Part shown: piece after piece, positions 14,976 through 42,904 of the stretch
How the letters are laid out: the number at the start of each line of letters is the position of its first letter
How positions within the stretch are numbered: position 1 is the first letter of the stretch
NCBI GenBank assembly: GCA_032718475.1
Contig: JAUCBJ010000702.1
Location: 1 to 47,720 of the forward strand
Reading direction: 5' to 3'
Origin: Nemertoderma westbladi
Lineage: Eukaryota; Animalia; Xenacoelomorpha
Length of the DNA stretch: 47,720 bases
Translations under genes and position numbers: made by a program
The notes under the pieces: model-generated
What the model saw: only the letters and a program-made list of their open reading frames with translations
The model's database searches: none
What the model was told of the DNA's origin: nothing

Positions 14976-15250
14976 TGTGGACTGATCTGATATAGGGATA
15001 GAAGGCAGAGATAGGACATGGCACGGCATGGATTGAGAGGAAGACTCTTCCTCTCACCTACCAGTAGGTGGGAGAGGGGTTTTGTACTGTGGTACTGCTG
15101 TATCTTCAGCAGTTGGTGATGGGTATTTGCAGTTTGTAGTCAGACTTGATTGAGATTATTTATAAATTGTTATTTTTTAATGTTGAAAGAAACTGTTGAA
15201 AATATTTATTGAACTAGTTAAATTTGATGTACTAACATCCCTGACTAGTT
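14976..15250 (+). mobile_element. Probable start of the Gypsy 3' LTR
   Basis: Polypurine GGGGGA immediately followed by TGT, about 60 bp after the integrase stop. Right boundary uncertain. Confidence 0.5.
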
Positions 15251-15253
15251 AAC

Positions 15254-18200: not shown

Positions 18201-18820
18201 AGGAACCCAAAGAGACAGCGAAAACGGAAGTGACAACCGCTTCCATGGAAGGAACCCAAAGAGACAGTGGAAATGGAAGTGACAACCGCCTCCGTGGAAG
18301 GAACCCAAAGAGACAGTGGAAATGGAACAGCCACCTCCGTGGAAGGAACCAAAAGAGGCAGCGGAAAAGGAAGTGTCAACCGCATTTGTAGAAGGAACCC
18401 AGAGAGACAGTGGAAACGGAAGTGGCAACCGCCCCGTGGAAGGAACCCAAAGAGACAGTGGAAACGGAAGTGACAACCACCTCCATGGACGGAACCCAAA
18501 GGAACAGTGGAAACGGAAGTGACAACCACCACCATGGAAAGAACCCAAAGAGACAGTGGAAACGGAAGTGACAACCGCTTCCATGGAAGGAACCCAAAGA
18601 GACAGTGGAAGTGACAACCGCCTCCGTGGAAGGAACCCAAAGAGACAGTGGAAAAGGAAGTGTCAACCGCCTTTGTAGAAGGAACCCAGAGAGACAGTGG
18701 AAACGGAAGTGACAACCGCCCCCGTGGAAGGAACCCAAAGAGACAGTGGAAACGGAAGTGACAATAACCGCCTAAATGGAAGGAACCCAAAGAGACAGTG
18801 GAAATGGAAGTGACAACCTC
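15254..18820. repeat. 49-bp minisatellite array (~3.6 kb) with a 603-bp higher-order duplication
   Basis: Unit GACAGCGGAAACGGAAGTGACAACCGCCTCCGTGGAAGGAACCCAAAGA (period 15302 to 15351). Identical variant blocks lie 603 bp apart (16162/16765). Confidence 0.97.
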
Positions 18821-19049
18821 GATTTCATCGAGGATTGGCTGAGTTATTATCGTTTAAATATTGGACGTGACAGAACAACAGTTACACTGATTGAGATAGT
18901 GATACCCGTATGCTAAGCTCGCTTACTTTTGTGGCTCGCCCCACACTATAATTCACATATTATTTAAATATTTCATAACTCTGAGTTCAATGTCTGATAC
19001 TGCAATGTTGACAATCTTGAATTTAATTGTAGTTTCGATTTACTTTCAG

Positions 19050-19210
19050 TATCGCCGATTAATGTCAATGGATGAGAGACCCCAACCGAAACCGCGGTCG
19101 CTGACAGCCTGTAGCGACCACACTGGGGGGCCAGACGGATCCTTCACTAACCCATCCGGTTACTGCACAATACCTACAGCCTCCACTCCAACAGATCCCT
19201 TGACCTCCTC
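19050..19210 (+). CDS. crk: Crk-family adaptor exon 3 (Pro/Ser/Thr-rich SH2-SH3 linker)
   Basis: tactttcAG acceptor, GTGAGT donor. Its phase 0-to-2 change is required to join exon 2 (phase 0) to exon 4 (phase 2). Confidence 0.75.
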
Positions 19211-19612
19211 GTGAGTATCAGAATGCCGCAATGAAATGTTAAGCTGTTCGATATTTTACGTTCCTTAAAGATATATATTTTATTTTTAGTTTTTTTTAAA
19301 ATTATTACACCCCCAAGCGAGGCAACTGCGGAATTTAATCATTATTTCAATAAATTGACCAATAAATACAAATATGTTAAAATAGAATATAGGAATGACA
19401 TAATGACACAATATGAATTGATAATGAAATTGAAAATTAATTAACTAAAACGGATAATTGTTATATTATTGTAAAATAAGGATATATTGAAAATATATCG
19501 AGACATGAAAAATATCGAGTGAAAAAATAACGCGAGTAAATATATCGAGAGTCGAAAAATTATCGAAAATATATGTAAATATCGATAATATCGCGAGTTC
19601 AAAAAAAAAAAT

Positions 19613-21998
19613 CAAATCGAGAGTAAAAATATCGAGAATGAAAATATCGAGAGTAAAAATATCGAGAATAAAAATATCGAGAGTAAAAATATCGAGAATA
19701 AAAATATCAAGAGTAAAAATATCGAGAGTAAAAATATCGAGAGTAAAAATATTGAGAGTAAAAATATCGAGAATAAAAATATCGAGAGTAAAAATATCGA
19801 GAATAAAAATATCAAGAGTAAAAATATCCAGAGTAAAAATATCGAGAGTAAAAATATCGAGAGTAAAAATATCGAGTGCAAAAATATCGAGAATAAAAAT
19901 ATCGAGAGTAAAAATATCGAGAATAAAAATATCAAGAGTAAAAATATCGAGAGTAAAAATATCGAGAGTAAAAATATTGAGAGTAAAAATATCGAGAATA
20001 AAAATATCGAGAGTAAAAATATCGAGAATAAAAATATCAAGAGTAAAAATATCCAGAGTAAAAATATCGAGAGTAAAAATATCGAGAGTAAAAATATCGA
20101 GTGCAAAAATATCGAGAATAAAAATATCAAGAGTAAAAATATCGAGAGTAAAAATATCGAGAGTAAAAATATCGAGAATAAAAATATCGAGAATAAAAAT
20201 ATCAAGAGTAAAAATATCAAGAGTAAAAATATTGAGAGTAAAAATATCGAGAATAAAAATATCAAGAGTAAAAATATCGAGAGTAAAAATATTGAGAGTA
20301 AAAATATCGAGAATAAAAATATCAAGAGTAAAAATATCGAGAGTAAAAATATCGAGAGTAAAAATATCGAGAATAAAAATATCGAGAATAAAAATATCAA
20401 GAGTAAAAATATCGAGAGTAAAAATATTGAGAGTAAAAATATCGAGAATAAAAATATCAAGAGTAAAAATATCGAGAGTAAAAATATTGAGAGTAAAAAT
20501 ATCGAGAATAAAAATATCAAGAGTAAAAATATCGAGAGTAAAAATATCGAGAGTAAAAATATCGAGAATAAAAATATCGAGAATAAAAATATCAAGAGTA
20601 AAAATATCGAGAATAAAAATATTGAGAGTAAAAATATCGAGAATAAAAATATCGAGAGTAAAAATATCGAGAATAAAAATATCGAGAATAAAAATATCGA
20701 GAGTAAAAATATTGAGAGTAAAAATATCCAGAGTAAAAATATCGAGAGTAAAAATATCGAGAGTAAAAATATCGAGTGCAAAAATATCGAGAATAAAAAT
20801 ATCAAGAGTAAAAATATCGAGAGTAAAAATATCGAGAGTAAAAATATCGAGAATAAAAATATCGAGAATAAAAATATCAAGAGTAAAAATATCGAGAGTA
20901 AAAATATTGAGAGTAAAAATATCGAGAATAAAAATATCAAGAGTAAAAATATCGAGAGTTAAAATATTGAGAGTAAAAATATCGAGAATAAAAATATCAA
21001 GAGTAAAAATATCGAGAGTAAAAATATCGAGAGTAAAAATATCGAGAATAAAAATATCGAGAATAAAAATATCAAGAGTAAAAATATCGAGAGTAAAAAT
21101 ATCGAGAGTAAAAATATCGAGAGTAAAAATATCGAGAATAAAAATATCGAGAATAAAATATCGAGAGTAAAAATATTGAGAGTAAAAATATCAAGAGTAA
21201 AAATATCGAGAGTAAAAATATCGAGGGTATAAATATCGAGAATAAAAATATCGAGAGTAAAAATATCGAGAGTAAAAATATCGAGAGTAAAAATATCGAG
21301 AATAAAAATATCGAGAGTAAAAATATCGAGAATAAAAATATCGAGAATAAAAATATCAAGAGTAAAAATATCGAGAATAAAAATATCAAGAGTAAAAATA
21401 TCGAGAGTAAAAATATCGAGAGTAAAAATATCGAGAGTAAAAATATCGAGAGTAAAAATATCGAGAGTAAAAATATCGAGAGTAAAAATATCGAGAATAA
21501 AAATATCGAGAATAAAATATCGAGAGTAAAAATATTGAGAGTAAAAATATCAAGAGTAAAAATATCGAGAGTAAAAATATCGAGGGTATAAATATCGAGA
21601 ATAAAAATATCGAGAGTAAAAATATCGAGAGTAAAAATATCGAGAGTAAAAATATCGAGAATAAAAATATCGAGAGTAAAAATATCGAGAATAAAAATAT
21701 CGAGAGTAAAAATATCGAGAATAAAAATATCGAGAATAAAAATATCGAGAGTAAAAATATCGAGAGTAAAAATATCGAGAATAAAAATATCGAGAATAAA
21801 AATATCGAGATTAAAAATATCGAGAATAAAAATATCGAGAATAAAAATATCGAGAGTAAAAATATTGAGAGTAAAAATATCAAGAGTAAAAATATCGAGA
21901 GTAAAAATATCGAGAGTAAAAATATCGAGTGTAAAAATATCGAGAGTAAAAATATCAAGAGTAAAAATATCGAGAGTAAAAATATCGAGAGTAAAAAA
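19613..21998. repeat. 15-bp AT-rich satellite (AAAAATATCGAGA[G/A]T), about 160 copies
   Basis: Seen directly. Degenerate copies at 19490-19612. Source of the KISRV/SIFLL ORFs. Confidence 0.98.
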
Positions 21999-22043
21999 TT
22001 TCCAGACTAAAATAGGAACATGCTAAATTATAAAATAAATAGA

Positions 22044-23457
22044 TTAAACGTTTGCTAGAGTTGCGAGAGATGGGGCAGATGAACAGACCAAGATATGGCA
22101 TTTATCTGTAATGGGCGAGTGACAGAATTTACATGCAAATGAATCCGATAAAGAGTGGAAAGGGCGTTGGTCCAGACAGAGTTTATGGTGGAACCCGTGC
22201 TCTGTCGTCTGACAGAGTTTATGGTGGAACCCGTGCGCTGTCGTCCGACAGAGTTTATGGTGGAACCCGTGCGTTGTCGTCCGACAGAGTTTATGGTGAA
22301 ACCCGTGCTCTGTCGTCCGACAGAGCACGTGGCGGTTCCTTTCTTTGGCCGGCTGATCTCCAGGTGGTCGATTTAAATGCTGAGCCTCGGATGAAACCTT
22401 CGTTAATAAAGTGGTTCTGGCGATCGGCTATAAAAGCTTTATAAGATTGCACCACGTCTTTGTCGAAAATATTATTGTGTTTAGATAGGATGCATTCCAC
22501 TAGAGTTCTTTCTCCCATAGGATTATGTGCTAAAGTTGAGGAGGCATTGGTGGGAAGACCTAGTTTCTATAAAAAGGACGATTTAATTTTATCAAGCTCT
22601 TTTAGATTATTTAGTTTTAAAAACTTCCCATATGATGTAATGGCATATAGAGCTTTCGGGGCGATTTCACCGTTAAATATTTTGAGAGTGGTATCAGCAG
22701 ATAAAAGAGGTAAATAGCTAAGTGAACCTATTATACTGTAGCAATCACGTTTTTTTCTGTCTATATGTCTGCTGAAACTGAGATAAGATTGCACTGTTAA
22801 ACCTAGATAGTTATAGGAATTTTCAATTTTGACAATATCACCACCGAAATAAAATACATCGCTGTTATTTAATCGGCCACCTTTCCTAAATTTTAAGATT
22901 TTAGTTTTCTTAAGGTTAACCATCATTCCATTCTCCGAACACCATAAATGTACTAGGTTTAAAGCTAACTGTATGTCTGTGGCACTGTTCGAGTAAGTGA
23001 CTAGATCATCTGCATAAAATATAAAAGAGATAGTGTGGGCTATAGAAAGAAGTCTGTAGGCCAAATCTGCAATGAATAACGAAAATAATGTTGGAGATAA
23101 ACAATCTCCCTGTAAAACACCTCTAAGCTGGCTAATAACGTTAGAGAGTCTAAGACCATCAAATATACGAATTGAGTTATTGAGAATATCGCGAATAATA
23201 TTATAAACTTTCCCCTTAATACCGGAGTTGTAAATTTTAAATAAAAGTTTAGCTCTAGAAACAAGGTCAAAAGCCTTTTTAAAATCAATAAAACAGGTGT
23301 ATACTTTACGGTCACTGCGTGATGATGAGCTAAGTGAGTTATGTATATGAGAAAGGAATTTATCTAATGCTTGAGTTGTTGACTTTCCACGCAGAAACCC
23401 ATATTGAACCGGTGGGAACTGGGAAGCTAGATTTGACATAATTATTTTGTTAAAAAT
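22044..23457 (-). mobile_element. 5'-truncated non-LTR retrotransposon (LINE): RT domain plus C-terminal Cys/His finger, decayed
   Basis: QYGF..GKST, FIDFKKAFDLV, GVLQGDCLSPTLF, YADDL, NLKKTK, YLG motifs. Continues past an in-frame TAG (22567) and a frameshift to HGFHHKLC...CKFC...HILVC. Confidence 0.92.
22175..22326. repeat. 36-bp tandem repeat x4 within the LINE C-terminus (LCRTTxHGFHHK)
   Basis: Units at 22175, 22211, 22247 and 22283. Confidence 0.9.
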
Positions 23458-23465
23458 CGATGTGG

Positions 23466-23560
23466 CTGGTTGTTGTGAAGGAATTCCACTTCAGTTTCAG
23501 GGTGTGAACGCTTTTCTGGTTGTTGTGAAGGAATTCCACTTCAGTTTCAGGGTGTGAACG
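23466..23560. repeat. 50-bp tandem repeat interrupted by the BEL insertion
   Basis: CTGGTTGTTGTGAAGGAATTCC...GTGTGAACG x2. The repeat resumes at 40426-40449 on the other side of the element. Confidence 0.85.
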
Positions 23561-24833
23561 TGTAAAAGCTTCTGTGGGATATAACTGGCCCCTTTGCTTC
23601 GCAATCCAGTTTCCCCCCAGGCGCTGGAATACTCTAAAAAGGTTCTCTAACTGTATATATATTCCCCTCGCCCTCAAGGTACCGTTACAGGTGTTTTAAC
23701 GGACATAAAAGTCATTCTGCTATATACGTGTTTTAGCGGACATGGTAAGGCAAAAAACCTGCAATGCGACAAATACCTTTCATAGCTTAGCCGTGATGAT
23801 TCATATTACGACATCTAACAGCTGGTTGCTGACATGGAAACAGCCATTGGACGCATGGTTCTTTGTTTGGCTTGAGCCAATCAGAGCGATTTTTCCTGTC
23901 GACGTGTAGCTTTTCGGTCGATCATAAGGAGAGTGTTCAGTCTTACTGTTTTTTCTTGATACTTTGTTGTTATTGCTGTCTAGGCCAGGAACAACGGCTC
24001 TAGAATCAATTTGTTTCATACTTTTAGAAGAAACATTAGTAGGCTAAAATTATAGAGCGTATGACTGTTATCAGTCAGTTCAGTTCAGTTCTTAACAACT
24101 CACATATCGGTACATATCAGTTTATATCATATCTTAACTTACCGTCTTAATGCTGTTTACTATTGTGTTTTGGTTGAATATCATTTGGAGAACATATATA
24201 AAGAACCCAAATTTCCCAATTTTCTTGATACACTACAGGTTAGAGAGACGGGTTATATATAGCGATTGCGACTTATATTGTTGTGGTTTGTAGTGAATTT
24301 AATGCTATTTGATAAGCACTACAGTGGTCCGTTGCTATTCCCTTTATATATGATAAAATTCATTGACGGTCGGCAAATTAGTGAGCAGTATTGTGTGTTA
24401 CCGGTAGTGTGCATGATTGTGACTGATAACTAAGCATTTCCTAAAGAATGCGCCTCATATGTGAATCTTAAGCTTTACCGACTTACCGTTGTGATTAGTG
24501 TAAGTCATATCTCTGTTTACTTAGATAGAGCGCCACGTCCTAAAGGAACTGTTAATATTTCCCGAAAGTGAATAATATTAGTCAGAAATTAATTATTAAC
24601 GATCAATCGAATAATACAATACAGTAAGCTTCACTGCAATAATAATTTAAGCCCTCAGAATCCAGTCTCCCGGGAATATCCAGCGGGTGAATGGACGCGC
24701 ACTAGGCTGGCTTCTGCTAATGTTGTGTTTGTTGGTATTAAATATTTGTCTTCTTCTAAAGTATATTTATAAACCAAAAGACATATAAATTTTGGCAGGT
24801 TAAACTGCTAAAGGTCTTCCAAAAGCGCGTACA
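23561..24833 (+). repeat. 5' LTR
   Basis: TGTAAAAGC...GCGTACA; direct repeat of 39153-40425. Confidence 0.97.
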
Positions 24834-24844
24834 ATAACAGTCAT
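24834..24844 (+). promoter_or_regulatory. Putative self-priming primer-binding site ATAACAGTCAT
   Basis: Abuts the 5' LTR, has no TGG, and is the exact reverse complement of LTR 24061-24071 (ATGACTGTTAT). Confidence 0.65.
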
Positions 24845-25164
24845 TGACTTTATTGCAGTAAGCAATAAAGTTGAAAGTACCGGTCAACCGGTAAACCTGA
24901 ACCGGTACTTCTGTAGGTCAGTAGGCCTAACTGCCAGAACCGGTACTTCTGTAAGTCTGTAGGCCCAACTGTCCTAACCGGTACTTCCAGTATAAGTACA
25001 TTAGTATTATTCGATTTTGATTATTGTATACCGGTAGGTCTCGATATTAAATCGGGGACGCCTGGTTTTTATTGGGATTTTACTTAGGTCTATTTCTGTC
25101 GGTGTTATTTACATGTAAGTTAATATTGAGCTGAAGACGTGTAAGTCTGCTCAGATTATTCCGA

Positions 25165-25742
25165 TAATTGTAGGCTGAGCTGCTGTCTGACTGTTGTTGG
25201 GTTTGGAGAGATTACGGCGTGTGTAGAGTTTGTCTGATAAAGTGCCGTTAGTAAGTTGGGGCAGCCATATGCTGTAAGGTCAATCCCCTCTTAAAGAATA
25301 AGTCGTACTACCGTGTTAGAACGCATACTAACTAACTATTTCAGAATCTGCATATACTGTAGTTTATTTAGGCTTGATCGTAGTCTGCCAGCGTTTTAGC
25401 CTGTGTTTGTTTGTGTGGTCTGTTCAGGTACCGTAATAGTTATTACTCAGATATTTTGTAGGCTGGATTGTTGTCTAGCTATTATTAGGTCTGAAGAGAT
25501 TGCTGCGTGTGTAGAGTTTGTCCGATAAAGTGCCAGTTAGTAAGTTGGGGCAGCCATATGCTGTAAGGTCAATCCCCTCTTAAAGAATAAGTCGTACTAC
25601 CGTGTTAGAACGCATACTAACTAACCGTTTTGGAATCTGCACATACAGTAGTTTATTTAGGCTTGGTGGTAGTCTGCCAGCATTTGGTCTGTATTTTGTT
25701 TGAGTATTCTGTACGGGTAGCGTAATATTTATTATTCAGAGT
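25165..25742. repeat. ~289-bp tandem duplication in the BEL 5' leader
   Basis: Core ...CAGCCATATGCTGTAAGGTCAATCCCC... at 25262 and 25551. Flanks are diverged. Confidence 0.85.
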
Positions 25743-27031
25743 TTATGCGATTATTCGCAACATTCATGTCCCCAAGTTTATTCCTACAGTAATTGTGTTT
25801 GTTATACATACCGTTATAGTTAAATTAACCCCGGTACTACACGGGCTGCTTGGCGTAGGACAAGACTGGTGACTTTGTGCTCTGGTCATTCCAGCAGATG
25901 CCGTGGTTCTTTTAACTGTTCAAGTATATTTAACTACTGATTATTTGTTGTACTAGTACTTGTACCTAATTTAGGGTTTAGTGTACAGTGCTTTCCGAAG
26001 TAATTAGTGTGTAGGCAGTATATTTGTGTTGTAAAGTGGTTAATAGGCACGCTGGATCTGGTAGTCCGCGGTAATTAACTTCTAGGTAGGAACACTCCGT
26101 GATACATAACGTAGTACCTATAGAGATACGGCTATAGGTCGTCAGGCGGTGGTATTTTCTTATCTGGACAGTGCAATATATTTACTACTACTTATTATTT
26201 AAATACCGTAGTATTCTGTCAGTTGTAATAACCAGAAATCTAACCCTTTGTTAGACTGGTTTGTAGACTTCCTGTAAAATTACCCTAAAAATTCGTACGT
26301 AATATTTTTGTTGTGTTTAATTAGAGATTTAATCTCACCCGTATCGTAAGTAATTTGTAGTATTAAGTAACTTAGGTAAATTAGAATTATCTGTTATAGT
26401 GTCCCATAAGTAGCACTCCACTGAGAGCGCACAGCTTCTGTGTAGTGACTCCCCCAGAAATAATAACATTTATTTAAAATATTGACAAAACCCATTTTAA
26501 ACGGGTATATAAATATTATAAATCAACTCAAACGATTTATAAATAGTAGGCCTGCCATACAACAACTAGGTCTCAATATCAGTTGGACTACTGCTTAAAT
26601 AACGGTAATAAAGTGAGTTAAAGTAACCAAGTAACCCTAAAATATTCAGAAATTCAATTATTCTAAAATAATTGACATACCGGGATTTACCATAGGCTTA
26701 ATATATTTATTTCTATAAATTTGAGCTGAAATCATACCGGTACTCTGTACTTAATTCTAGTCCATAATTATACTTATATATACTATAAGTGTAAGCAGTA
26801 TACCGGTATTCACGATAGGCCTATTATATATTTATATATATTTGTGCTAAATTTATATACCGGTACTCTGTGACAAACCTAGTTTACAATACTTATATAT
26901 ATATTATAAGTGCATACCGGTATTCTAATATACTGCAATAAATTACCGGTACTAGGCCAACGGTCATACTGAATTACTAGACTTGCTTTAACTGTAACTA
27001 TAGCAGTAGGCATTCAACTGTATAGCTAAAC

Positions 27032-30000
27032 ATGTCTGACACTCAGCAAAACCTGTCAGACAGTCTAATCGATACAACCATCTGTGACACAGATAGGAGT
27101 GTGGAGCGTTTAAGAAAGGAGTTCAGCTCACCTCCTACTGAAAGAAAAGTCATCCCTCCAGTAGTGATATCGGACCCTAAGCTAATCCAGCACCGTAGGT
27201 CCATCATCGGCACTCGGGCCCAAGTCAAACGGAACCAGGAAGCAGCTGTCCCACAACAGCAACAGCCTAGTCGAGAAATTTGTTCCCAGCGATCCGATAG
27301 CTCCAGTAGTTCGGATACTGTCGAACTGACCCCTGAACGCGGATTGCAGATGACGGCTAAAGCCTACTCGGACCCCCTGCTCACCCTTCCTGCCGCAGTG
27401 CTAACAACTATATCGATTGCGGTGGAGGAACATCAAGCAGATTGGGCGAGAAATAAGCGAGCGACCCAAGATGATTATGCGGGATACGCCAGGGAAGAAT
27501 TGATGTCGATTGTCGAGTCACAATGGAACTTTCCCGGACCCGGACTCCCGTTAGATCTGTCCGAGGCTACTTGGGAAGATATACACAGGATGGGAGTGGC
27601 TAAAGATACGATGGATCCAGCTGTTTGGAAGAGGTCGGCAGCAGGATATGTGCAGGGATTCTTCGGCTCCTTAGATAGATTAGAAGAACAACTGTTTCGA
27701 CAACCCCAAGGACCTCAAGAGCAGGAAGAACTGCTATATCAAGTACGCGAAAGAACCCTACGCATTCGACTAATCCTATCAGCTTTTGAGGAAACTTCCA
27801 AAAGAAGACAGGACACGTCACTGCAGGTTGCTGTCAAAACTTGGTTCCAGCGGGTAGGTCTCCAAGTACAAGAAACAAACCAGTGGAAATCCCAGCTGTC
27901 TGAGAGACTAACTTATGAAGAACCAACCGATGCCACCCTTTCCCAGGTGGAAGGCGAAGAGACCTCAGAGAAACCACGAACGAGAGACGCCATAGACATT
28001 TATCTGTCCGACTATCAGCGATTCCTAGGAGACGAAGAATTGAGGAGACGGCTGTCTGGACTTTCCCCCAATAGTGAAGGAACCCAGCGTGTGTTAGATT
28101 CAATCGATGCTGAAATGTTAGCTGCTAACCAAGCAGAATTTGATGAAAAACTCCGCCTCGCTAGAGTCCAAGAAGAAAAGGTAAAGAAAAGACGGATAGA
28201 GGAACAAAAGGCGGTGGCTACGGCAGAAGCAGAAGCAGAAAGAAAAGCAGCGGCGGTAGAAGTAGAAGCAGAAAGAAAAGCAGCGGCGGTAGAAGTAGAA
28301 GCAGAAAGAATAGCAGCAAAGGCGGAAAGGGCAGTGGCAGAAGCAGAACGGAGAGCGTCTGAGCAAACTACCCAACTGGAGTTGGAAAGTCTGCAAGAGA
28401 CGCAAGACAACATAAATAAACAGTTAACTGCTAGTCACATGCAGATGATGAGACGATCTACTCCCAAACGCCAGGGATACACATCATCGGAGGAAAGCGA
28501 AACCACCGATACTGAAGGCGGAGGAAATAGATCTCGTCTAAGCAGGCGTAGAAAAACATCTCACCGTCACAAATTGCCTGATTTGCCCCCAGCTGTTAAA
28601 AGACAGCTAGCTAGCACAGACTTAGGTGGTACGGAACCCATAGACCAAACTGTTCAGGTCAAAAGACTCCCTACAATAGTTGATGAGCCTGAAATAATTA
28701 GGCCTGTCGTTCCCAAAGTCACTTCTGTGTTAGAGACCCCTGTACTTCCAGAGCTTCACTCTAAATTCCCTTTACACAGTACTACACTGCCTGTACCCGG
28801 TAGAACAGTCCATGAGAATATCCCTGTCCTGGAAGCTGAGAGAGAAATCAAAGATTTGTCTCCCGTCGTCCCGCGTCAGCCCGCTACTATGTTGGCGACT
28901 CCCGCTTCGGCGGTCGAGTGGGTAGAGGAGGGACGGCGGGGGATGAATCTCCTGCTCGGACAGATGCAGGAGACTGTCCACCAGCTTAAGGGAACAGTAA
29001 GGGAAAGTAGAGCAGAGTTGCAAGAAGTGCAGCAAAGTATCGCACTGGAACGCGACAAGTTAGTCAATATACAAAAGGGCATACCAATACCCCCTGTAAC
29101 ATTGTGTCAACCTGTTAGGTCTGAAGTATTACATGCGCAAGGTGTGGAGCCTACACGCATCTATACTGCTAGTGAAGTAGAAACTCCTATAGCAAACCCT
29201 ATTAAGGGTGATTATAGACCTGTTATTAATGATATTCCCTATAGACCTGATAATGATCCGAGAAATTTATATACCGATAATTCGATATTAAATAATACGA
29301 TGGCCCAAGAAAGCTTTACGCGTCAGATGGCTAGAACAGAAGCCCGCCAAGCGGTCAAAGTGGGAGAGATCGTCAAATTCAATGGAGATGAGATGAAATG
29401 GTTACCTTTCAACGAATATTACAAAGACAGCATACAGAACTCTGTACTATCTAACGGAGAGAAACTTAGGTTCCTCATCAAGTGCTTGGAAGGACCTCCC
29501 AAGTTAATGGCGTTAAAGTTTATTGGACATCCAGAAGGATTAAGACAAGTATGGGATACATTAAACATCAGGTATGGTAACAAGGATAACATAGCTAAGT
29601 ATTTGTATGCAAAATTAGTAGCCCCCCGACACTTCCTTAGTAGTGGGATTATAGAGTTTTCCGATGAAATTCAGGAGATCTGTAGACAATTGGACTGGTT
29701 AGGTAAGTCTCATGAATATCAGAGTTCAATGGTTATTGGAGCCGTAGTCTCTACTTTACCAAAGGGTGGAGTATGTACACGCTGGGACAAGAAAGTGTTG
29801 TACATGAATGAACAACAACGACGAAGTCCTACCATGGCTGATCTCATGTCCTTCTTAGATGGTGAGGTAAAACTACAACTCATCAAGCAGTCCAGAGAGA
29901 AAACATCGGAAAATAAGGTAAGTGAGAAACCCGCTTCTAGGAGAAGAATAACACCGGTGTGTTACACTGACGACGGCGAAAGCCAAGTTTCTCAAGAAGA

Positions 30001-30343
30001 GGACAGCGGGAAAGACACCGAGCTTTCTTACTATATTGACAAAACCTCAAAAGATGTAAGTAAATACAAAGCTCGAAACAACGATAGGAGAGAACAGGTT
30101 GCTAAGACCCCTCCTCAGTCTCCTAACAGAATGCACCGAAGAAAACCAGAAGAAAAAGCGAGAGTGCATCAAGTTACCCAAGGTAAGGTAAGTAACATAA
30201 AACCTAACTGTGCGCTGTGCGACGGGACACACCGTTTGAGTGCGTGTGCTGAATTTCTAAAGAAATCCCTTGTAGACAGACGTACAGTCGTGTGGGACAA
30301 GCGGTTATGCTATAATTGCCTCAGACCAGGACACCAACGGTGA
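27032..30343 (+). CDS. gag: BEL/Pao Gag portion of a gag-pol polyprotein (long coiled-coil/disordered N-terminus, DUF1759-like capsid region, zinc knuckles)
   Basis: KFNGDEMKWLPF...EKLRFLIKCLEG...L..RYG motif. Knuckles CALCDGTHRLSAC and CYNCLRPGHQR*TC. Same frame as pol. Confidence 0.92.
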   Translation: MSDTQQNLSDSLIDTTICDTDRSVERLRKEFSSPPTERKVIPPVVISDPKLIQHRRSIIGTRAQVKRNQEAAVPQQQQPSREICSQRSDSSSSSDTVELTPERGLQMTAKAYSDPLLTLPAAVLTTISIAVEEHQADWARNKRATQDDYAGYAREELMSIVESQWNFPGPGLPLDLSEATWEDIHRMGVAKDTMDPAVWKRSAAGYVQGFFGSLDRLEEQLFRQPQGPQEQEELLYQVRERTLRIRLILSAFEETSKRRQDTSLQVAVKTWFQRVGLQVQETNQWKSQLSERLTYEEPTDATLSQVEGEETSEKPRTRDAIDIYLSDYQRFLGDEELRRRLSGLSPNSEGTQRVLDSIDAEMLAANQAEFDEKLRLARVQEEKVKKRRIEEQKAVATAEAEAERKAAAVEVEAERKAAAVEVEAERIAAKAERAVAEAERRASEQTTQLELESLQETQDNINKQLTASHMQMMRRSTPKRQGYTSSEESETTDTEGGGNRSRLSRRRKTSHRHKLPDLPPAVKRQLASTDLGGTEPIDQTVQVKRLPTIVDEPEIIRPVVPKVTSVLETPVLPELHSKFPLHSTTLPVPGRTVHENIPVLEAEREIKDLSPVVPRQPATMLATPASAVEWVEEGRRGMNLLLGQMQETVHQLKGTVRESRAELQEVQQSIALERDKLVNIQKGIPIPPVTLCQPVRSEVLHAQGVEPTRIYTASEVETPIANPIKGDYRPVINDIPYRPDNDPRNLYTDNSILNNTMAQESFTRQMARTEARQAVKVGEIVKFNGDEMKWLPFNEYYKDSIQNSVLSNGEKLRFLIKCLEGPPKLMALKFIGHPEGLRQVWDTLNIRYGNKDNIAKYLYAKLVAPRHFLSSGIIEFSDEIQEICRQLDWLGKSHEYQSSMVIGAVVSTLPKGGVCTRWDKKVLYMNEQQRRSPTMADLMSFLDGEVKLQLIKQSREKTSENKVSEKPASRRRITPVCYTDDGESQVSQEEDSGKDTELSYYIDKTSKDVSKYKARNNDRREQVAKTPPQSPNRMHRRKPEEKARVHQVTQGKVSNIKPNCALCDGTHRLSACAEFLKKSLVDRRTVVWDKRLCYNCLRPGHQR

Positions 30344-33300
30344 ACCTGTTACTCCGACATAAAGTGTGCAAAGTGTGGCGCGAAACATCACATCTTGTTA
30401 CACAGTGAGTTCGAACGAGACAAACAGAGTCAGGTAAGTGAGCCCGAACTACATGTCCAATTCAGTGATGTAAACGACACTGATCAGGAGTCTGAGATGG
30501 AAGGATTCTATACTGACGAATTCTCCGACGCCAACGAATCCTGTTATCTAATCAATACCGCAGTGTATCGAGCACTTACTTATGAAAAGGACACCAACAA
30601 TGAGTTTCCCCCAACTACTTTTGCCAAACAACCATCTTGGAAAGCTCCAACTTCCAACGTAGGAATCAGAGAATTTCCTGTAGTACAGGTAAGAGTTCAC
30701 GGTCTTAACAAAAGTTACATAGTGAACGCCCTCCTTGACTCTGGCAGCACAGGAACATTCATCGATCAAGAACTAGCCGAAGATATCTTTGCTGGACAAC
30801 CCAAGTTCCGGACGAAATTGAATATGTCAGGAATTATGCAGGTTTGGAAATCTACCTTAACGGCAGATTACTATGTAGGTGTGTTGTCCACCCCCCAGGA
30901 TAAGTTAGGAGCACAAGGTATAAGGTCGGTAAAAATGGTGGCTATAAAGAACTTCGCTACTACTCAAGCAGACCTTTATAATTGGGACGAGGATGAGAGC
31001 ATCCAACATCTTAAGATACCTCGATTCCAGACAGAGTATCCTGGAGTGCAAATACTCATCGGCCAAAACGCGCATGAGGCGCTCGAAACATTGGAGAAAC
31101 GGCCTGCTCAACCACAGCCACTGCAAACCTATGCGGTAAGAACTAGAGTAGGTTGGTACTTTACTGGCCCTTCCCGCAGGACTCTCGAAGAGAGAATGCC
31201 ACCAGAACAAACATACCAAGTACACGATTGGGAAGTGGATAGCAGTGAGGTGGACGAACTAACTGAGGGAACACCATACTCCTCAGATAATGACGACATA
31301 TACCAACTCTTCGATGAAGAGAACACCATCGACCTACTTACAGAAAACCAAACTTGGAAAAGTCAGGTGAACCTATGTCAACTGATTCACCCATCGGAAC
31401 CCATCGCTTACAATGACGAACTAAACGATGAGATAGAGCGCTGCAACGCTAGAACTCGGGACGAACTAGCCGTACGCTTCTTTACTCAGGAACTGGTAGA
31501 GCCCAATTCATATGATAAGGCTCTATCGATAGAAGAAGAAAGAGCCAAGCAAATCCAGGAAACAACTACACGTTTTTTAAAGGACCAAGGTAGGTATGAA
31601 ATTGGCCTACCATTTAGAAAACGAGAACCTAGATTTATAAATAACAGACCCTTGGCAGAGAAAAGAATCGCTCAATTATATCGACGCCTTACAGCTAATG
31701 CTTCAGCGAAAGAAATGTACCAAACTCAGCTGAAGAAATTTATAACAAAGGGATACGCGGAGCGAGTACCAGAAGGAACACCAGTGACTGAGAGAACGTA
31801 TTATTTAACACATCATTACGTTCCCAAACCCGGTAAACCCCATGAAGTACGAGTCGTATTTGATGGCTCCGCTCTGTATATGGGCCAATCCCTCAATTCC
31901 GAGTTGTTACCAGGACCCAACTTACTCCAATCTTTGTTGGGAATACTATTAAGATTAAGACAATATTCCATCGCGTTCGCCTCTGATATCGAAGGAATGT
32001 TCTTACAAGTCAAGGCGCTGGATAGAGATAGAGACAGCCTGAGATTTCTGTGGTGGCCTGAAGGAGACCTCAACCAGAAACCGGTAGAGTACTGGATGAC
32101 CATCCAGGCTTTTGGGATCATATCAAGCCCTTCCAACGCCTGCTCCGTGGTGCGAACCACTGCGAATGACAACCGAGACTCCTTCTCCAAAGAAGTGATA
32201 GACAACATAAAACGCAATATATACATGGACGACAATTTAAGGTCCCTTCCATCAGTAGAAGAAGCCATAGCTGTCGCGAAAGGAACGGTAGAGTGTTTGA
32301 AAAGAGGTGGATTTCGACTGACGAAATTCACTAGTAACTCCCGTGAGTTTCTGGAAGCCATACCGGTAGAGGATCGCGGAGCGAAAGACCTAGACTTAAT
32401 AAAGGACGATCTTCCTGAAACCAAGACGCTAGGCTTGAAGTGGGACACTGAAAGAGACATCCTGTTTTTTCAGTTAAAACAGCGAGATAATCCAGTTCGG
32501 ACCAAACGGATTTGTTTAAGTATCCTGAGCACTTATTTCGACCCATTGGGATTTATTAGCCCAGTTATATTGATTGCTCGGAGTTTAGTACAACAGATGT
32601 GGCTTGAAAACCACTCATGGGACGATCCGCTTAAGGGAGAATTGTTGAAGAAATGGATGAAATGGGAAGATTCTCTACCTGCCATCGAGAACTTTATAAT
32701 TTCCCGTGCATATTTTGGCCATGTTCTTCCTACGTATTCCTATCAACTCCATGTGTTTGGAGACGCCAGCGACATGGGAATAGGTATAGTAGCATATCTG
32801 CGAGTCGAAACTCCGGATGGAATCAAAGTCGCCTTGGTTACCTCTAAGGCATTGATTAACAACAAGCTAAAGGTTCCTCGAGCGGAGTTAAAGGCGGCTT
32901 TATACGCTACAGCCATCGGCCGGAACGTAACGCAACAAATCGACTATCCACTGGAGAAAACGGTTTATTGGACCGACGCTTTACTCGTGTTGGAGTATCT
33001 CACCAATGAAGTCTGTCAGTTTAGCGTTTTTGTTACTAACCGAGTAGCTATTATTCTTAGTCGCACAAAGATAGATCAATGGAGACATTGCCCTGGTACG
33101 ATTAATCCAGCCGATATCGCCTCCAGGGGAGCAACTCCACAGGAACTGATAGATACTCCAGATTGGTTGGGTAGACCCTACTTCCTGAGCAAGGAAGAGG
33201 ATGAATGGCCTCCTCACCTTACTACGGCAGAGATTAGACAAGCCAAGGGAGCGGAGACCGTCAAACCTAAAACCCAGGCGAGTAAATCGAAGTTATTTAA

Positions 33301-34999
33301 ACCGACTATCGATCTATCTGTATTACATACTTCCGGGAATGATGCTTCGGATCCACAATCCCTCAACACAAATAAGTCTGTTGTGGAAATTAGAGATAGA
33401 GATTGGAAATCTGGAATACCAGACGTCTCGCAAGGAATCTCACCCATGCTGCAGAGAGCAATGCATCATTACAGTTCCTGGAATCGGCTCTGTAAAGCCG
33501 TCACATATTTAAGACGATGTTTTCATCATCACTACTCCAGGACGAAAACCACTAGTGATCACGCTCCATTGACATCTGCACAAGTTCATGTTATTAAGAA
33601 TTTACCCAAATATAAGATATCTGATCGTTTTCTAAAGGAGAAAATTAGTCACCAGGAGTATGAAGAAACAAATAAGCAGATACTGAGACTCCTGCAATGC
33701 TATGAGGATTCCGAAAAGTACTTCCTGTTGTTGAGAAATCCACAGATGCGCTTAAGGGATCGATTCTCGAGCACAATGATAGATGGGTTAATACGTGTTG
33801 GAGGAAGACTCACCAACGCGCCCTTATCCTTTGACACCAAATTCCCCATACTTATTAGAAATCTTGAAGTACAAATCAAGATGATTGTAGACGTTCACGG
33901 TAAACTTTATCATGCTGGTAGAGAACGAATTCTTAGCGAAATTCGAACTCGCTATTATTTTAATAAACCCCGTAGAGCTCTGAACCAAGTTCTTAGGAAC
34001 TGCATACCCTGTAGGAAAGCATTCAGTAGGCCTTTAACACAGCGAGAGGCAGAATTACCTAGGGAACGAGTAAGCTTCTATGAACCACCTTTTACTAATA
34101 CTGGTGTAGATTTATTTGGCCCTATTGAAGTATATCGTGCGAGGACTATAGTCAAGAGATGGTGTGTCATCTTCGTGTGCATGACTTGTAGAGCCATCCA
34201 TCTCGATATGGTGAACGATCTATCTACCAACAGCTTCGTCTTAAGTTTACGACGACAGATCGCTCGCTTCGGGACGAGTAATACCATGAGATCGGATAAA
34301 GGAACGAACTTCATAGGTGCCAACAACGAGATACAGGCTTACGTGAAGGACTGGAACCAAAGACAGGTGGACGACCAGCTAAGGATAACAGCATCTAGCT
34401 GGACCTTCAACGCTGCCGACGCCCCTTGGTGGGGAGGAAGTTGGGAGAGATTAATTCGAAGTGTCAAAACCGCATTTCACTTTATAGTGCCATGCCGCGC
34501 GTATCTCACCGACGAACTTTTGCGGATGTTAATGGAGGAAATCGCTGCCTATCTCAACGAGAGACCGCTTATGCCAGTCTCATCGAGTCCCGATTCCCTA
34601 GAAGCGCTAACACCCGCGCACTTCCTACTGAAGAAACCTGTAGCCATGCTCCTACGATCGGAGATTGCCGACGGAGACGAATACTGCCGTCGAACTTGGC
34701 AACTTATGCAGTTGCTATCCCGTCGTTTCGCTGACCATTTCGAGAAACATTATCTGCCCACGCTACAACTTCGAACTAAGTGGTTTGCGCAGCAAGAAAA
34801 CGTCAGCGCCGGAGATATGGTGCTTATTGTAGATCCAGACCTCCCACGTAAACGGTGGCAGACAGGTCGTATCATCGAGACACACATCTCAGATGATGGT
34901 TTAGTACGCTCGGTAGAACTCATCGTCATGCGGCGTAACTTCAAGAAGCCAGGCATCATCTTTGAGACGCAACAACTCAATTGCCCAGTTGGTACCTAA
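30344..34999 (+). CDS. pol: BEL/Pao Pol portion: third knuckle, aspartic protease, RT, RNase H, integrase
   Basis: CAKCGAKHHILLH; LLDSGS; RVVFDGS, DIEGMFLQV, YMDD; VFGDAS, PRAEL, WTDA, NPADIASRG; HHCC zinc finger, DLFGP, SDKGTNF, GSWERL; W..GRI...DGLVRSV. Confidence 0.96.
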   Translation, partial: TCYSDIKCAKCGAKHHILLHSEFERDKQSQVSEPELHVQFSDVNDTDQESEMEGFYTDEFSDANESCYLINTAVYRALTYEKDTNNEFPPTTFAKQPSWKAPTSNVGIREFPVVQVRVHGLNKSYIVNALLDSGSTGTFIDQELAEDIFAGQPKFRTKLNMSGIMQVWKSTLTADYYVGVLSTPQDKLGAQGIRSVKMVAIKNFATTQADLYNWDEDESIQHLKIPRFQTEYPGVQILIGQNAHEALETLEKRPAQPQPLQTYAVRTRVGWYFTGPSRRTLEERMPPEQTYQVHDWEVDSSEVDELTEGTPYSSDNDDIYQLFDEENTIDLLTENQTWKSQVNLCQLIHPSEPIAYNDELNDEIERCNARTRDELAVRFFTQELVEPNSYDKALSIEEERAKQIQETTTRFLKDQGRYEIGLPFRKREPRFINNRPLAEKRIAQLYRRLTANASAKEMYQTQLKKFITKGYAERVPEGTPVTERTYYLTHHYVPKPGKPHEVRVVFDGSALYMGQSLNSELLPGPNLLQSLLGILLRLRQYSIAFASDIEGMFLQVKALDRDRDSLRFLWWPEGDLNQKPVEYWMTIQAFGIISSPSNACSVVRTTANDNRDSFSKEVIDNIKRNIYMDDNLRSLPSVEEAIAVAKGTVECLKRGGFRLTKFTSNSREFLEAIPVEDRGAKDLDLIKDDLPETKTLGLKWDTERDILFFQLKQRDNPVRTKRICLSILSTYFDPLGFISPVILIARSLVQQMWLENHSWDDPLKGELLKKWMKWEDSLPAIENFIISRAYFGHVLPTYSYQLHVFGDASDMGIGIVAYLRVETPDGIKVALVTSKALINNKLKVPRAELKAALYATAIGRNVTQQIDYPLEKTVYWTDALLVLEYLTNEVCQFSVFVTNRVAIILSRTKIDQWRHCPGTINPADIASRGATPQELIDTPDWLGRPYFLSKEEDEWPPHLTTAEIRQAKGAETVKPKTQASKSKLFKPTIDLSVLHTSGNDASDPQSLNTNKSVVEIRDRDWKSGIPDVSQGISPMLQRAMHHYSSWNRLCKAVTYLRRCFHHHYSRTKTTSDHAPLTSAQVHVIKNLPKYKISDRFLKEKISHQEYEETNKQILRLLQCYEDSEKYFLLLRNPQMRLRDRFSSTMIDGLIRVGGRLTNAPLSFDTKFPILIRNLEVQIKMIVDVHGKLYHAGRERILSEIRTRYYFNKPRRALNQVLRNCIPCRKAFSRPLTQREAELPRERVSFYEPPFTNTGVDLFGPIEVYRARTIVKRWCVIFVCMTCRAIHLDMVNDLSTNSFVLSLRRQIARFGTSNTMRSDKGTNFIGANNEIQAYVKDWNQRQVDDQLRITASSWTFNAADAPWWGGSWERLIRSVKTAFHFIVPCRAYLTDELLRMLMEEIAAYLNERPLMPVSSSPDSLEALTPAHFLLKKPVAMLLRSEIADGDEYCRRTWQLMQLLSRRFADHFEKHYLPTLQLRTKWFAQQENVSAGDMVLIVDPDLPRKRWQTGRIIETHISDDGLVRSVELIVMRRNFKKPGIIFETQQLNCPVGT

Positions 35000-37626: not shown

Positions 37627-39126
37627 ATGACGGAGTTGATAGAAGATGATCTTGGTATCAGGGAGCGATATACTCTACCTTTACAAGCATTTGTGGATAG
37701 CTTGATATGCGGTGAAGCCGATCCAACCATTACGGAGGACGATGGTCGTTATATCGAACCGCCGATGTCCCAAGAGCAACTTACGCGTGAATTGGACTAT
37801 CGAAAATTCACCGCTCGCTATACGCATCGTAATGGTACGTATATGGACTTCCTAACTACCGGCCATCCTATCGATTTACATGATACGGACGATGTAGACA
37901 CCGAAAGGGAAATGGTTCTATTTAAATATCATACCCAGCGGAGTCGTAACGATAAACCGAGAATAGATCACGAAAATTCTATTCGTAACAGACTGGGAAG
38001 ACGAACCAATATGCCTAGAATCTGAGGAGATTCAGCCTATCGCGCCCGGAACAGCGACAACGATTACATCCTAGAATGGTATCAAGGTCCACAGTGTCTC
38101 ACTGCGTACAATTATCGCCATGCCAACTATGTTTCTCGGCAACGTTGTCGGTTATGCGCATCGAGAGACCATGTTACGCCCATGGACACAAACGTCTGCT
38201 GTTCCTATTTCCACGAACAACCGGCGATGGAAATTTATTGCGCGTATTGCAGATTTAATAATTTGCACATTTTTGCGGTTTGCCCTCAATTTATGACTCA
38301 ATGTCACCATTGTCAACTAAAGGGACATGCTAGTTTCGACTGCCCTTTTAATCACGATTTGGAAAGCGTAGATGAAATGATCACACTGCGTTACATCAGA
38401 GCTTGGGAAGCGAACGCTGATTTACATTGTGATTCGCGCCATCGCTACTATCCCGGACGCGCTTACGAAGGAGTTTATGCGTTCCATCCTTATCTATTCG
38501 CTTCTGTTGAACAGAAATCACGCATATCGAGTTACGAGCTACTGAAGCGCGTCGGAGAATGTATTTCAACTAAATTTGTACGCAAATTTCTCAGGAGTGT
38601 TAATCCTAGCGACCTTCATTCCTATAACTTAATCAATTATATCCGTCAGGATCCGGACTATGGAGACTTGTTTGTTAACTCACACCCCGAGTTGCAGGAA
38701 GTACATCGACGGCCTTACGAATACCGAGCCTGCGAACGCGAGTTGGAAAGGACCATTAAATCCCGGAAGTTTCTAACTGCCTATGGTCCACCCACGGCCC
38801 TCGTTCAGACCACTCGTAAAGGACCCGTAAGAGCGGCTGTCTTGAAACGAGCTCTCAAAGCCGTTAGACCCCTCTCACCTGACGTTGATGTCAATCAACC
38901 CGGTACTTCGACTGGCGGATACACCGACCATAATCCTACCCCTCTGATGCAATCATATTGCACCCTTCACCCAGGAGTTATAGCCCTCATTGTAAAGTGG
39001 CTCACCCCAAAGAGAAAAGGACTCTTGCTAGCTTTAAAAAACTGCGTAAACGCCGTCCGCGCAAGAAAGACTAACTGTTTAGAGTATTTACGTATATTAG
39101 AAACTGTGATTTTGTATATTTTATAG
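37627..39126 (+). CDS. Extra BEL ORF3 (499 codons, one internal TGA at 38023-38025) encoding a multi-zinc-knuckle protein
   Basis: ORFs 37627-38025 and 38182-39126 are in one frame and the gap reads open (GDSAYRARNSDND...CRLCASRDH). Knuckles CAYCRFNNLHIFAVC and CHHCQLKGHASFDC. Stop lies 26 nt before the 3' LTR. Confidence 0.78.
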
Positions 39127-39144
39127 ATGCAAATCCCATTTTCT

Positions 39145-39152
39145 GGGAGCGG
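39145..39152 (+). promoter_or_regulatory. Short polypurine tract (GGGAGCGG)
   Basis: Purine-rich run directly before the 3' LTR TGT. Confidence 0.6.
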
Positions 39153-40425
39153 TGTAAAAGCTTCTGTGGGATATAACTGGCCCCTTTGCTTCGCAATCCA
39201 GTTTCCCCCCAGGCGCTGGAATACTCTAAAAAGGTTCTCTAACTGTATATATATTCCCCTCGCCCTCAAGGTACCGTTACAGGTGTTTTAACGGACATAA
39301 AAGTCATTCTGCTATATACGTGTTTTAGCGGACATGGTAAGGCAAAAAACCTGCAATGCGACAAATACCTTTCATAGCTTAGCCGTGATGATTCATATTA
39401 CGACATCTAACAGCTGGTTGCTGACATGGAAACAGCCATTGGACGCATGGTTCTTTGTTTGGCTTGAGCCAATCAGAGCGATTTTTCCTGTCGACGTGTA
39501 GCTTTTCGGTCGATCATAAGGAGAGTGTTCAGTCTTACTGTTTTTTCTTGATACTTTGTTGTTATTGCTGTCTAGGCCAGGAACAACGGCTCTAGAATCA
39601 ATTCGTTTCATACTTTTAGAAGAAACATTAGTAGGCTAAAATTATAGAGCGTATGACTGTTATCAGTCAGTTCAGTTCAGTTCTTAACAACTCACATATC
39701 GGTACATATCAGTTTATATCATATCTTAACTTACCGTCTTAATGCTGTTTACTATTGTGTTTTGGTTGAATATCATTTGGAGAACATATATAAAGAACCC
39801 AAATTTCCCAATTTTCTTGATACACTACAGGTTAGAGAGACGGGTTATATATAGCGATTGCGACTTATATTGTTGTGGTTTGTAGTGAATTTAATGCTAT
39901 TTGATAAGCACTACAGTGGTCCGTTGCTATTCCCTTTATATATGATAAAATTCATTGACGGTCGGCAAATTAGTGAGCAGTATTGTGTGTTACCGGTAGT
40001 GTGCATGATTGTGACTGATAACTAAGCATTTCCTAAAGAATGCGCCTCATACGTGAATCTTAAGCTTTACCGACTTACCGTTGTGATTAGTGTAAATCAT
40101 ATCTCTGTTTACTTAGATAGAGCGCCACGTCCTAAAGGAACTGTTAATATTTCCCGAAAGTGAATAATATTAGTCAGAAATTAATTATTAACGATCAATC
40201 GAATAATACAATACAGTAAGCTTCACTGCAATAATAATTTAAGCCCTCAGAATCCAGTCTCCCGGGAATATCCAGCGGGTGAATGGACGCGCACTAGGCT
40301 GGCTTCTGCTAATGTTGTGTTTATTGGTATTAAATATTTGTCTTCTTCTAAAGTATATTTATAAACCAAAAGACATATAAATTTTGGCAGGTTAAACTGC
40401 TAAAGGTCTTCCAAAAGCGCGTACA
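39153..40425 (+). repeat. 3' LTR
   Basis: 1273 bp; four transitions versus the 5' LTR seen by eye. Confidence 0.97.
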
Positions 40426-40584
40426 GAACGCTTTGCTGGTTGTTGTGAACAACATGAATCTTTACCCGTTTTTTACTGTAACCACTTTTTCTTACTTTTA
40501 TAATAGCATGTCACTGTAAGCTGTTTGGATGTCGGCTGAAGGTGTAGCCTTTCATCCACCTCTTGATTTATATTTGTATTTCAG

Positions 40585-40777
40585 GACCTCGGGTGGAGGG
40601 GAGGCGTACATGGCTCTTTACGACTTCAATGCCTCTGACCCTGACGATATGTCAGTACAGAAGGACGAGATTGTCATAGTAGAAGAACGTTTGGCTGAGG
40701 AGGAAGACCAATGGTGGGTCGCGAGGTCCCTGGATGGAACCCGGAAGGGCCAAGTGCCTGCTAATTACTTCAGAAAA
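40585..40777 (+). CDS. crk: Crk-family adaptor exon 4 (N-terminal SH3)
   Basis: ALYDF...DDMSVQKDE...QWWVARS...GQVPANY. gtatttcAG acceptor, phase 2 to 0. Confidence 0.9.
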
Positions 40778-41218
40778 GTTGGTTTTATTGAATTATTTTT
40801 AAATTAGTATAATTACTATATACACGGCAGTTTACGTATTTCACGGTGAATAAAGTCCATAGTATACTCTGCACTGAATTTAAGTTAAATATCCAATCCA
40901 TACTAATTTAAAAACTAATTGATTACATAAATAATTAATTAATTGCTTATTTCCAATATTGACCATTATATTTCTTTATTACAACAATGCGTTGTGTGTT
41001 AAAATTAAATTAAAATTAATTATTATAAAAGTCATTAAATTAAAAAATAAATATATTCTGCTTATTTCCAATATTAATAAAATAAAATTAAATATATTAA
41101 ATAAAATTAAATATATTTTTATATTTTATTTTATTCCAATTTGGATAATTAGTAATAAAATAATTTTATTTCTCGCCATTATTTTTAATTTTTTTTATTG
41201 TATTTATAATTTTCCTAG

Positions 41219-42219: not shown

Positions 42220-42645
42220 AACAATATTCATCCCCCAAAAACAATTATTCATCCACCAAAAATAATTATTGATTCCCCAAAAACAATTATTCATCCCCCA
42301 AAACAATTATTCATCCCCCCAAAACAATTATTCATCCCGCAAAAACAATTATTCTACCCCCAAAAACAATTATTCAACCCCCAAAAACAATTATTCATCC
42401 CCCAAAAATAATTATTCATCCCCCAAAACAATTATTCATCCCGCAAAAACAATTATTCTACCCCCAAAAACAATTATTCAACCCCCAAAAACAATTATTC
42501 ATCCCCCAAAAATAATTATTCAACCCCCAAAACAATTATTCATCCCGCAAAAACAATTATTCTACCCCCAAAAACAATTATTCAACCCCCAAAGACAATT
42601 ATTCATCCCCCAAAAATAATTATTCATCCCCCAAAAATAATTACT
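42220..42645. repeat. 21/22-bp minisatellite (AAAACAATTATTCATCCCCCA)
   Basis: About 20 copies seen directly. Confidence 0.92.
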
Positions 42646-42904
42646 TGTCAACCTAAAAAAATTATTCCAGCTCCAAATACTGTATTTACATGGGCCAAAT
42701 ACTGTATTTTATATTAACTACGCTTTGGTCAGTTGCCATGCATCAGTTACAGTATTCGTATACCGATAGGCCTAGGGTATTGCCTTCAGAACAACGTATA
42801 CTGTTATTAGGTTTCGTACCGATATACCTACAGTATTAGGCCTACTTCAGTTTCAGTATTCGTACCGATAGGCCTATTGCCTATCTATTATTGCGGATAC
42901 TGTA

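Follow-up and report, generated by a model that had tools for sequence, protein, structure and literature searches.

A BEL/Pao retrotransposon located in the window (the whole analysed stretch of DNA, 47,720 nt in length) was found to carry, immediately behind its 5' LTR, a primer-binding site (PBS) that is the exact complement of 11 nt of its own LTR, and it is likely, judging from sequence and from analogy with Tf1, that the element's own RNA (24061–24071) primes minus-strand synthesis instead of a tRNA. This reading, already put forward in the preliminary description of this DNA, is indicated by several observations taken together: the pairing is exact, a TGG is lacking, no variant of the 11-mer is listed for the family, and related families show the pairing with letters of their own. 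A broader model, which we favour with some reservation, is that a widespread BEL/Pao group (from marine-associated samples) swapped tRNA priming for an RNA primer derived from its own LTR. In most families the spliceosome would build this primer by removal of an LTR intron, splicing thereby acting as a switch for reverse transcription, and intron loss would repeatedly have given ready-made primers; the window element would then be one of these derivatives, or else belong to another BEL lineage, separate from the first, that has a Tf1-like primer at the 5' terminus and switches its pairing through the choice of start site.

The element spans positions 23561–40425 (16,865 bp, i.e. 16.9 kb) and is organised as follows:

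23556..23560, plus strand: 5' target site duplication (TSD; GAACG, 5 bp), inside a short host tandem repeat
23561..24833, plus strand: 5' LTR, TG...CA, 1273 bp
27032..30343, plus strand: gag part (DUF1759), closed by an in-frame TGA that lies between Cys-His motifs
30344..34999, plus strand: pol part (protease, RT, RNase H, integrase and DUF5641), from Pfam and translation
37627..39126, plus strand: extra reading frame with Cys-His knuckle-like motifs and an in-frame TGA inside (38023–38025)
39145..39152, plus strand: polypurine tract (PPT), adjoining the 3' LTR
39153..40425, plus strand: 3' LTR, with a copy of the candidate primer at 39653–39663
40426..40430, plus strand: 3' TSD (GAACG, 5 bp)

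The BEL/Pao identity given in the preliminary description was borne out by a profile search, in which the Pfam families DUF1759, Peptidase_A17, Integrase_H2C2 and DUF5641 were detected in Gag-Pol, the domains and their PR-RT-RH-IN order being of the BEL type, as well as by the LTRs with TG..CA ends, the TSD and the PPT. What we take to be the catalytic motifs of Pol were identified from the translation. The best database protein matches of Pol were BEL polyproteins (42–43% identity), with amphioxus, brittle star, ribbon worm and sea urchin providing the best named matches. LTRs, 5-bp TSD, PPT, PR-RT-RH-IN gag-pol and BEL Pfam domains are shared with Belpaoviridae/Semotivirus. However, members of the Belpaoviridae are described by the ICTV as having an 18-nt PBS for tRNA-Arg or tRNA-Gly, a genome of 4.2–10 kb and LTRs of 0.2–1.2 kb (PMC8742986), whereas the window element is 16.9 kb long, lacks a tRNA-type PBS and possesses an extra 3' reading frame.

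Both LTRs are 1273 bp long and differ from each other at four positions (4/1273), and this copy is a young insertion. Its gag-pol frame is broken by an in-frame TGA at 30341–30343 and a further in-frame TGA (38023–38025) lies in the extra frame, the reading frame going on past each. The sequence contexts of the two interruptions are unlike, and they may be explained by programmed readthrough or by two mutations that arose in a young copy. The extra frame (37627–39126) matched no Pfam family, and the searches performed revealed no homologue of it. A very long 5' leader (24834–27031, 2.2 kb), with internal duplications near 25200–25700, and a 3' spacer (35000–37626) bring the element to its large size. 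A second copy of the PPT motif (TGGGAGCGG) was observed at 36940–36948, in the 3 kb that separate pol from the extra frame, and is a possible central PPT or a relic of an older 3' end.

The two sequences on which the proposed priming would depend are the following:

24061..24071, plus strand: candidate self-primer, exact complement of the PBS
24834..24844, plus strand: PBS without TGG and without a spacer after the LTR, ATAACAGTCAT

ATAACAGTCAT occurs only once in the window, at 24834, and its reverse complement only at 24061 and 39653, i.e. in the 5' and the 3' LTR, the match being exactly 11 nt in length. No TGG is present within 30 nt of the 5' LTR, the nearest one downstream being at 25063, and in this respect the element departs from the tRNA 3'-end PBS of the BEL/Pao description, which is not the basis of classification; the PBS is instead of the Tf1 type, complementary to ~11 nt of its own LTR. 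All coordinates previously reported for the missing spacer, the missing TGG and the complement in both LTRs were thus confirmed. The earlier chance estimate of ~3e-4 was of the right order but slightly low, as 8e-4 was computed from the LTR composition. Matches of at least 11 nt to the LTR were observed at five of ~14,290 internal positions (the PBS site included) and, elsewhere in the internal region, in 14 of 14,263 six-offset windows (offsets 0–5); when spliced junctions were also allowed, 3/300 random queries reached the 11-nt level. Overall, the chance of the PBS match is about 1e-3.

An LTR end at 24839 was considered and rejected, since position 24833 is established as the end by both the TSD and the 3' LTR. 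An intron that starts within the window primer or directly behind it was likewise rejected: junctions at any GT/AG yield a match of 10 nt and those at consensus sites only 7 nt, and the GT at 24074 is absent from other copies. The contiguous 11 nt thus exceeds any consensus-site junction in the window, indicating that the primer of this copy is contiguous and not split by a GT..AG segment.

The window family was shown, by contigs from four public sequencing runs, to be high-copy and variable. Among the variants listed for 24020–24260, which were substitutions at a frequency of at least 5% in the three DNA runs that cover the primer, none falls within 24046–24074. In run X1 the summed depth drops from 73,200 (24065–24073) to 6,469 (24074–24082), and four of five contig joints break at 24072–24073; together with the lack of variants, this indicates that conservation ends 2–3 bases past the primer. 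No difference in the PBS (24834–24844) was seen among the 40 of 558 family differences listed. The family contigs contained no spliced joint, but being DNA they carry no information on splicing. Over the initial 460 bp of the LTR (23561–24019), run X5 displayed ~10x the depth of most of the rest, which suggests a more abundant sister family or a derivative with a common U3.

To place the pairing in a wider context, 97 related loci (32–43% identity) were collected in two scans. L081–L097 are BEL/Pao retrotransposons in 17 contigs of bacterial genome bins, and this second locus set probably consists of host contigs (animal host contamination); no relatives of the element were found among the viral contigs searched. 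The test set comprised 20 relatives with a median RT-RH identity of 49%, in which the 5'-LTR end was fixed by a second LTR copy (L026 and L056 were dropped as repeats of L017 and L054, respectively). Some LTR ends were set by eye to CA or TATA; TATA instead of CA terminates the LTRs of L055, L062 and L077. For L041 and L077, the position of the LTR start is approximate. Of ten relatives checked, six have their LTR ends confirmed by a TSD of 5 bp.

The preliminary description had proposed that co-variation between LTR and PBS be sought in diverged family members, and had regarded a normal TGG PBS or lost complementarity in related copies as evidence against self-priming. In two of the 20 relatives (L041 and L073) a TGG site is present and the match to the own LTR is limited to 4 nt, whereas 17 of the 18 others match their own LTR over 10–15 nt, with letters that differ each time, so that the pairing is retained across related BEL families. 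Each of these 17 matches was reached by at most 4/500 (or 1/300) random queries. The match is contiguous (10–12 nt) in 5/18 non-TGG relatives, while in 12/18 it reaches 10–15 nt only across a GT..AG segment of the LTR (71–451 nt); the remaining relative, L088, failed the scan with 8 nt and showed 10/11 across a GT..AG segment on inspection. The offset of the match from the LTR end is 0–4 in all matched elements. L084, L087, L088, L089 and L091 were obtained after the pattern had been seen, and four of these five passed the scan. In a swap test that takes in the window element and leaves out L087 and the TGG elements, a match of at least 10 nt was found with the own LTR in 17/18 cases and with a foreign LTR in 8/306. 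L070, which lies near the window element in trees and has a known LTR start, yielded a best match of 6 nt. Blind scans without a fixed LTR end gave matches of at least 10 nt in 8/12 and 14/62 loci, for which no null was run and, in the 62-locus scan, many loci lack a full LTR; these were kept out of the counts, as were L022 and L058, which were judged by eye. The primer lies 762 nt from the LTR end in the window element versus 44–203 nt in relatives. A poly(A) hexamer is located downstream of the primer in all 17 hexamer-bearing LTRs (of 19), which is what strand transfer after a cut would need.

These data bear on three other explanations. A chance match in a copy that has lost its true PBS is extremely improbable: while a value of ~1e-3 is not decisive by itself for one window of very many scanned, the insertion is young (4/1273 differences), the 11-mer is conserved and 17/18 relatives behave alike. 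Priming of the window family by a host RNA (a tRNA half or other small RNA), with an incidental LTR match, is distinctly improbable. Half-tRNA priming is known in copia lineages (PMC6317226), and the position of the window element within the self-complementary clade is not a firm one; such priming would nevertheless leave both the 1e-3 match and the invariant LTR 11-mer unexplained, the PBS sequences of relatives differ, so no single host RNA fits, and Rfam gave no match in 23500–27100. No tRNA genes were detected in the window. The third explanation, also improbable, holds that priming occurs otherwise and that the pairing represents a structural or regulatory helix (closing off a 5' UTR domain or regulating splicing, packaging or usage of the poly(A) site) or a remnant of the LTR terminal inverted repeats. 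Consistent with it, TGTTAT and ATAACA, which form part of the match, resemble the LTR terminal repeats, and the primer:PBS helix is predicted to close a large folded domain; yet the pairing sits exactly at the primer-binding place in all matched elements, its length of 10–15 nt resembles that of the Tf1 primer, neither of the TGG elements has it, and the LTR end is fixed at 24833 by TSD and 3' LTR.

The GT..AG segments that split the match in relatives are likely to be introns, as judged from their sequence. When the GT/AG rule was switched off, the best split match still fell on GT..AG in 7/13 elements compared with 11/325 random queries (p = 7e-8), the other 6/13 being won elsewhere by a split that, under equal rules, was 1–2 nt longer (5 for L088). 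A full GTRAGT donor is present in 8/13 split elements versus 18/718 GT sites, in a count for which L088 was set by hand and L084 was chosen by homology among three ties. The segments are T-richer than the downstream LTR in 13/13 elements, and joining across the segment improves the predicted duplex by 0.8–8.7 kcal/mol. Between L084 and L087 (RT-RH 90% identical), which have donor and acceptor context in common, two changes across the junction are double-sided (CAC/TAA at the exon end, GTG/TTA in the PBS). Contiguous-type relatives have shorter LTRs than split ones (177–325 vs 365–863 bp, p = 2e-4, window element left out), and at least five changes between contiguous and split primers were counted on the tree. 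The switches and the LTR lengths fit repeated intron loss, loss and gain not being separable from them, and the window LTR, at 1273 bp, is off the size trend. This intron-split form, which was absent from the preliminary description, is the more novel part of the finding.

Survival of such introns through reverse transcription would be accounted for by priming in trans, whereby the primer is element-encoded but short LTR transcripts ending at the poly(A) site, derived from 5' LTRs or solo LTRs and spliced where an intron is present, anneal to unspliced full-length RNA. The poly(A) hexamer lies 0–97 nt after the primer in 16/18 non-TGG relatives and the window family is high-copy, both in keeping with this mode; it is nonetheless considered unlikely, as an intramolecular fold is predicted in the window element, with a probability of 0.86–1.0 for an RNA starting at 24061.

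Whether the window primer could be the 5' end of the transcript, as in Tf1, was assessed from folding predictions and from the following features of the LTR and leader:

23745..24027, plus strand: candidate upstream intron with a GTAAGG donor and a pyrimidine-rich AG acceptor (motif scan)
23877..23941, plus strand: putative rival start site, with CCAAT (23877) and an initiator-like TCAGT (23937) (motif scan)
24062..24077, plus strand: predicted local 6-bp hairpin, which would compete for the primer if the RNA starts further upstream
24737..24742, plus strand: sole AATAAA/ATTAAA hexamer of the LTR, 665 nt downstream of the primer
24844..24874, plus strand: predicted 13-bp hairpin adjoining the PBS (z = -4.0 for 24780–24900)

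A start at 24061, as earlier proposed, is a tentative assignment that we rate slightly short of an even chance. In its favour, equilibrium folds of ~850 nt predicted the primer:PBS helix with a probability of 0.75–1.0 for RNA starts at 24056–24061 and of 0.0 for starts at 24040 or earlier, in which the local hairpin takes the primer, although folding over a contact distance of 770 nt is unreliable. The CCAAT at 23877, the TCAGT repeats after the primer (24071, 24080 and 24085) and the lack of a TATA near -30 were all seen as previously noted. The missing TATA speaks against this start, as does the CCAAT, which lies at -184 relative to 24061 and is better placed for the TCAGT at 23937; the donor and acceptor motifs at 23745 and 24027 point the same way. 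The relatives also argue against it: no start-site signature is common to the primers (a pyrimidine-purine step in 6/18 elements and a TATA near -30 in 1/18), and the match starts 3–9 nt ahead of the splice donor in 13 relatives, so that, were the primer of split families 5'-terminal, their first exon would be a very short one of 3–9 nt. The hairpin after the PBS was not found to be a feature common to relatives. A second, 10-nt complement between LTR and leader (24633–24642 with 24850–24859) lies just past the PBS and overlaps a near-poly(A) motif, which it could help to hide in the 5' LTR only.

Under self-priming, the transcript would fold such that 24061–24071 pairs with 24834–24844, as in Tf1, and the 13-bp hairpin next to the PBS may stack with the resulting helix. 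If Tf1 is a guide, the RNase H of the element would cut just 3' of the primer, whereupon RT would extend the new 3'-OH through ~760 nt of U5/R, with strand transfer to the 3' R presumably occurring via the sequence that lies from the cut up to the poly(A) site. The window primer would be positioned either at the capped 5' end, to which we give a little less than even weight, or internally in the transcript. For 12–13 of the related families, removal of the spliceosomal LTR intron is a predicted prerequisite for the primer. The intron would persist only if its 3'-LTR copy in the template RNA remains unspliced; a spliced 3'-LTR copy would yield progeny with a short LTR and a ready-made contiguous primer, as in five relatives.

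Phylogenetic placement of the window element was examined in trees built only from the loci and database proteins. A FastTree phylogeny grouped it with self-complementary elements, whereas a 30-row IQ-TREE analysis left its placement unresolved. With 1069 Pol columns, its position was outside a group in which the splice-type clade was joined by the TGG elements (SH-aLRT 91), and in the larger tree the TGG elements were nearer to the splice-type clade than the window element, which sits on a long branch (1.65); a single clade of window and splice-type elements was not rejected (p-AU 0.097). In view of this outside or uncertain position, the co-variation in relatives serves as precedent rather than as direct proof for the window family. 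An independent origin of tRNA-free priming in BEL, as suggested earlier, is likely.

A PBS that is the complement of 11 nt of the own LTR, without a tRNA site, is likewise described for Tf1/Tf2 (Schizosaccharomyces pombe), Tj1 and the Tf1/sushi and Tcn1 groups of Ty3/gypsy (PMC7175516, PMC4600332 and PMC6317226). RNase H cuts Tf1 RNA between bases 11 and 12 (PMC7175516), and start-site choice decides whether the self-primer is included in Tf2 (PMC5341516). In Tf1 the primer consists of the first 11 nt of the mRNA, while the start at 24061 in the window element is only a candidate; moreover, its Pol is of the BEL type rather than of the type found in relatives of Ty3/gypsy chromoviruses, so it is not a Tf1/sushi member and at most works like Tf1. 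Outside the Tf1 group, self-priming has been predicted from LTR-PBS complementarity for the TAR lineage of plant Ty1/copia (Houba and Osr-1; PMC6317226), which makes more than one origin probable and lowers the surprise of a further one. BEL/Pao elements are described as tRNA-primed, their replication being poorly understood (ICTV, PMC8742986). Neither self-priming nor a splice-built primer was found reported for BEL/Pao in the titles, abstract openings and passages of openly accessible literature that the search covered, PMC3601003, PMC8220671 and PMC7472051 included, and an intron-split primer was not found in the accessible text on Tf1-type elements. The terms primer, PBS, tRNA and intron are absent from the BEL surveys PMC3118150 and PMC6238403, PBS and tRNA from the BEL survey PMC554778, and BEL and self-priming from PMC10886601. 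Self-priming itself is known in Tf1/sushi and predicted for TAR copia; judged by the literature covered, its occurrence in BEL/Pao would be new. If correct, tRNA-free priming reaches a third LTR superfamily, and self-priming elements may escape control by tRNA fragments; it would also explain why PBS-based finders may miss such elements. A splice-completed primer, if real, would couple reverse transcription to RNA processing in the nucleus and require different handling of the two LTR copies of one intron.

The DNA flanking the insertion contains two further coding-like stretches:

22567–23490, minus strand: RT fragment belonging to a different retroelement (RVT_1, E 5e-29), immediately upstream of the BEL/Pao insertion
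40585–40780, plus strand: SH3-domain exon-like stretch (E 2e-13), located 160 bp downstream of the 3' LTR

The proximity of the SH3 exon-like stretch suggests that the element probably sits in an intron of an SH3-coding gene. Long tandem arrays and several long inverted repeats of a MITE-like type were observed at 15200–22000 and 42280–45900, including an array of 15-bp units at 19466–22000.
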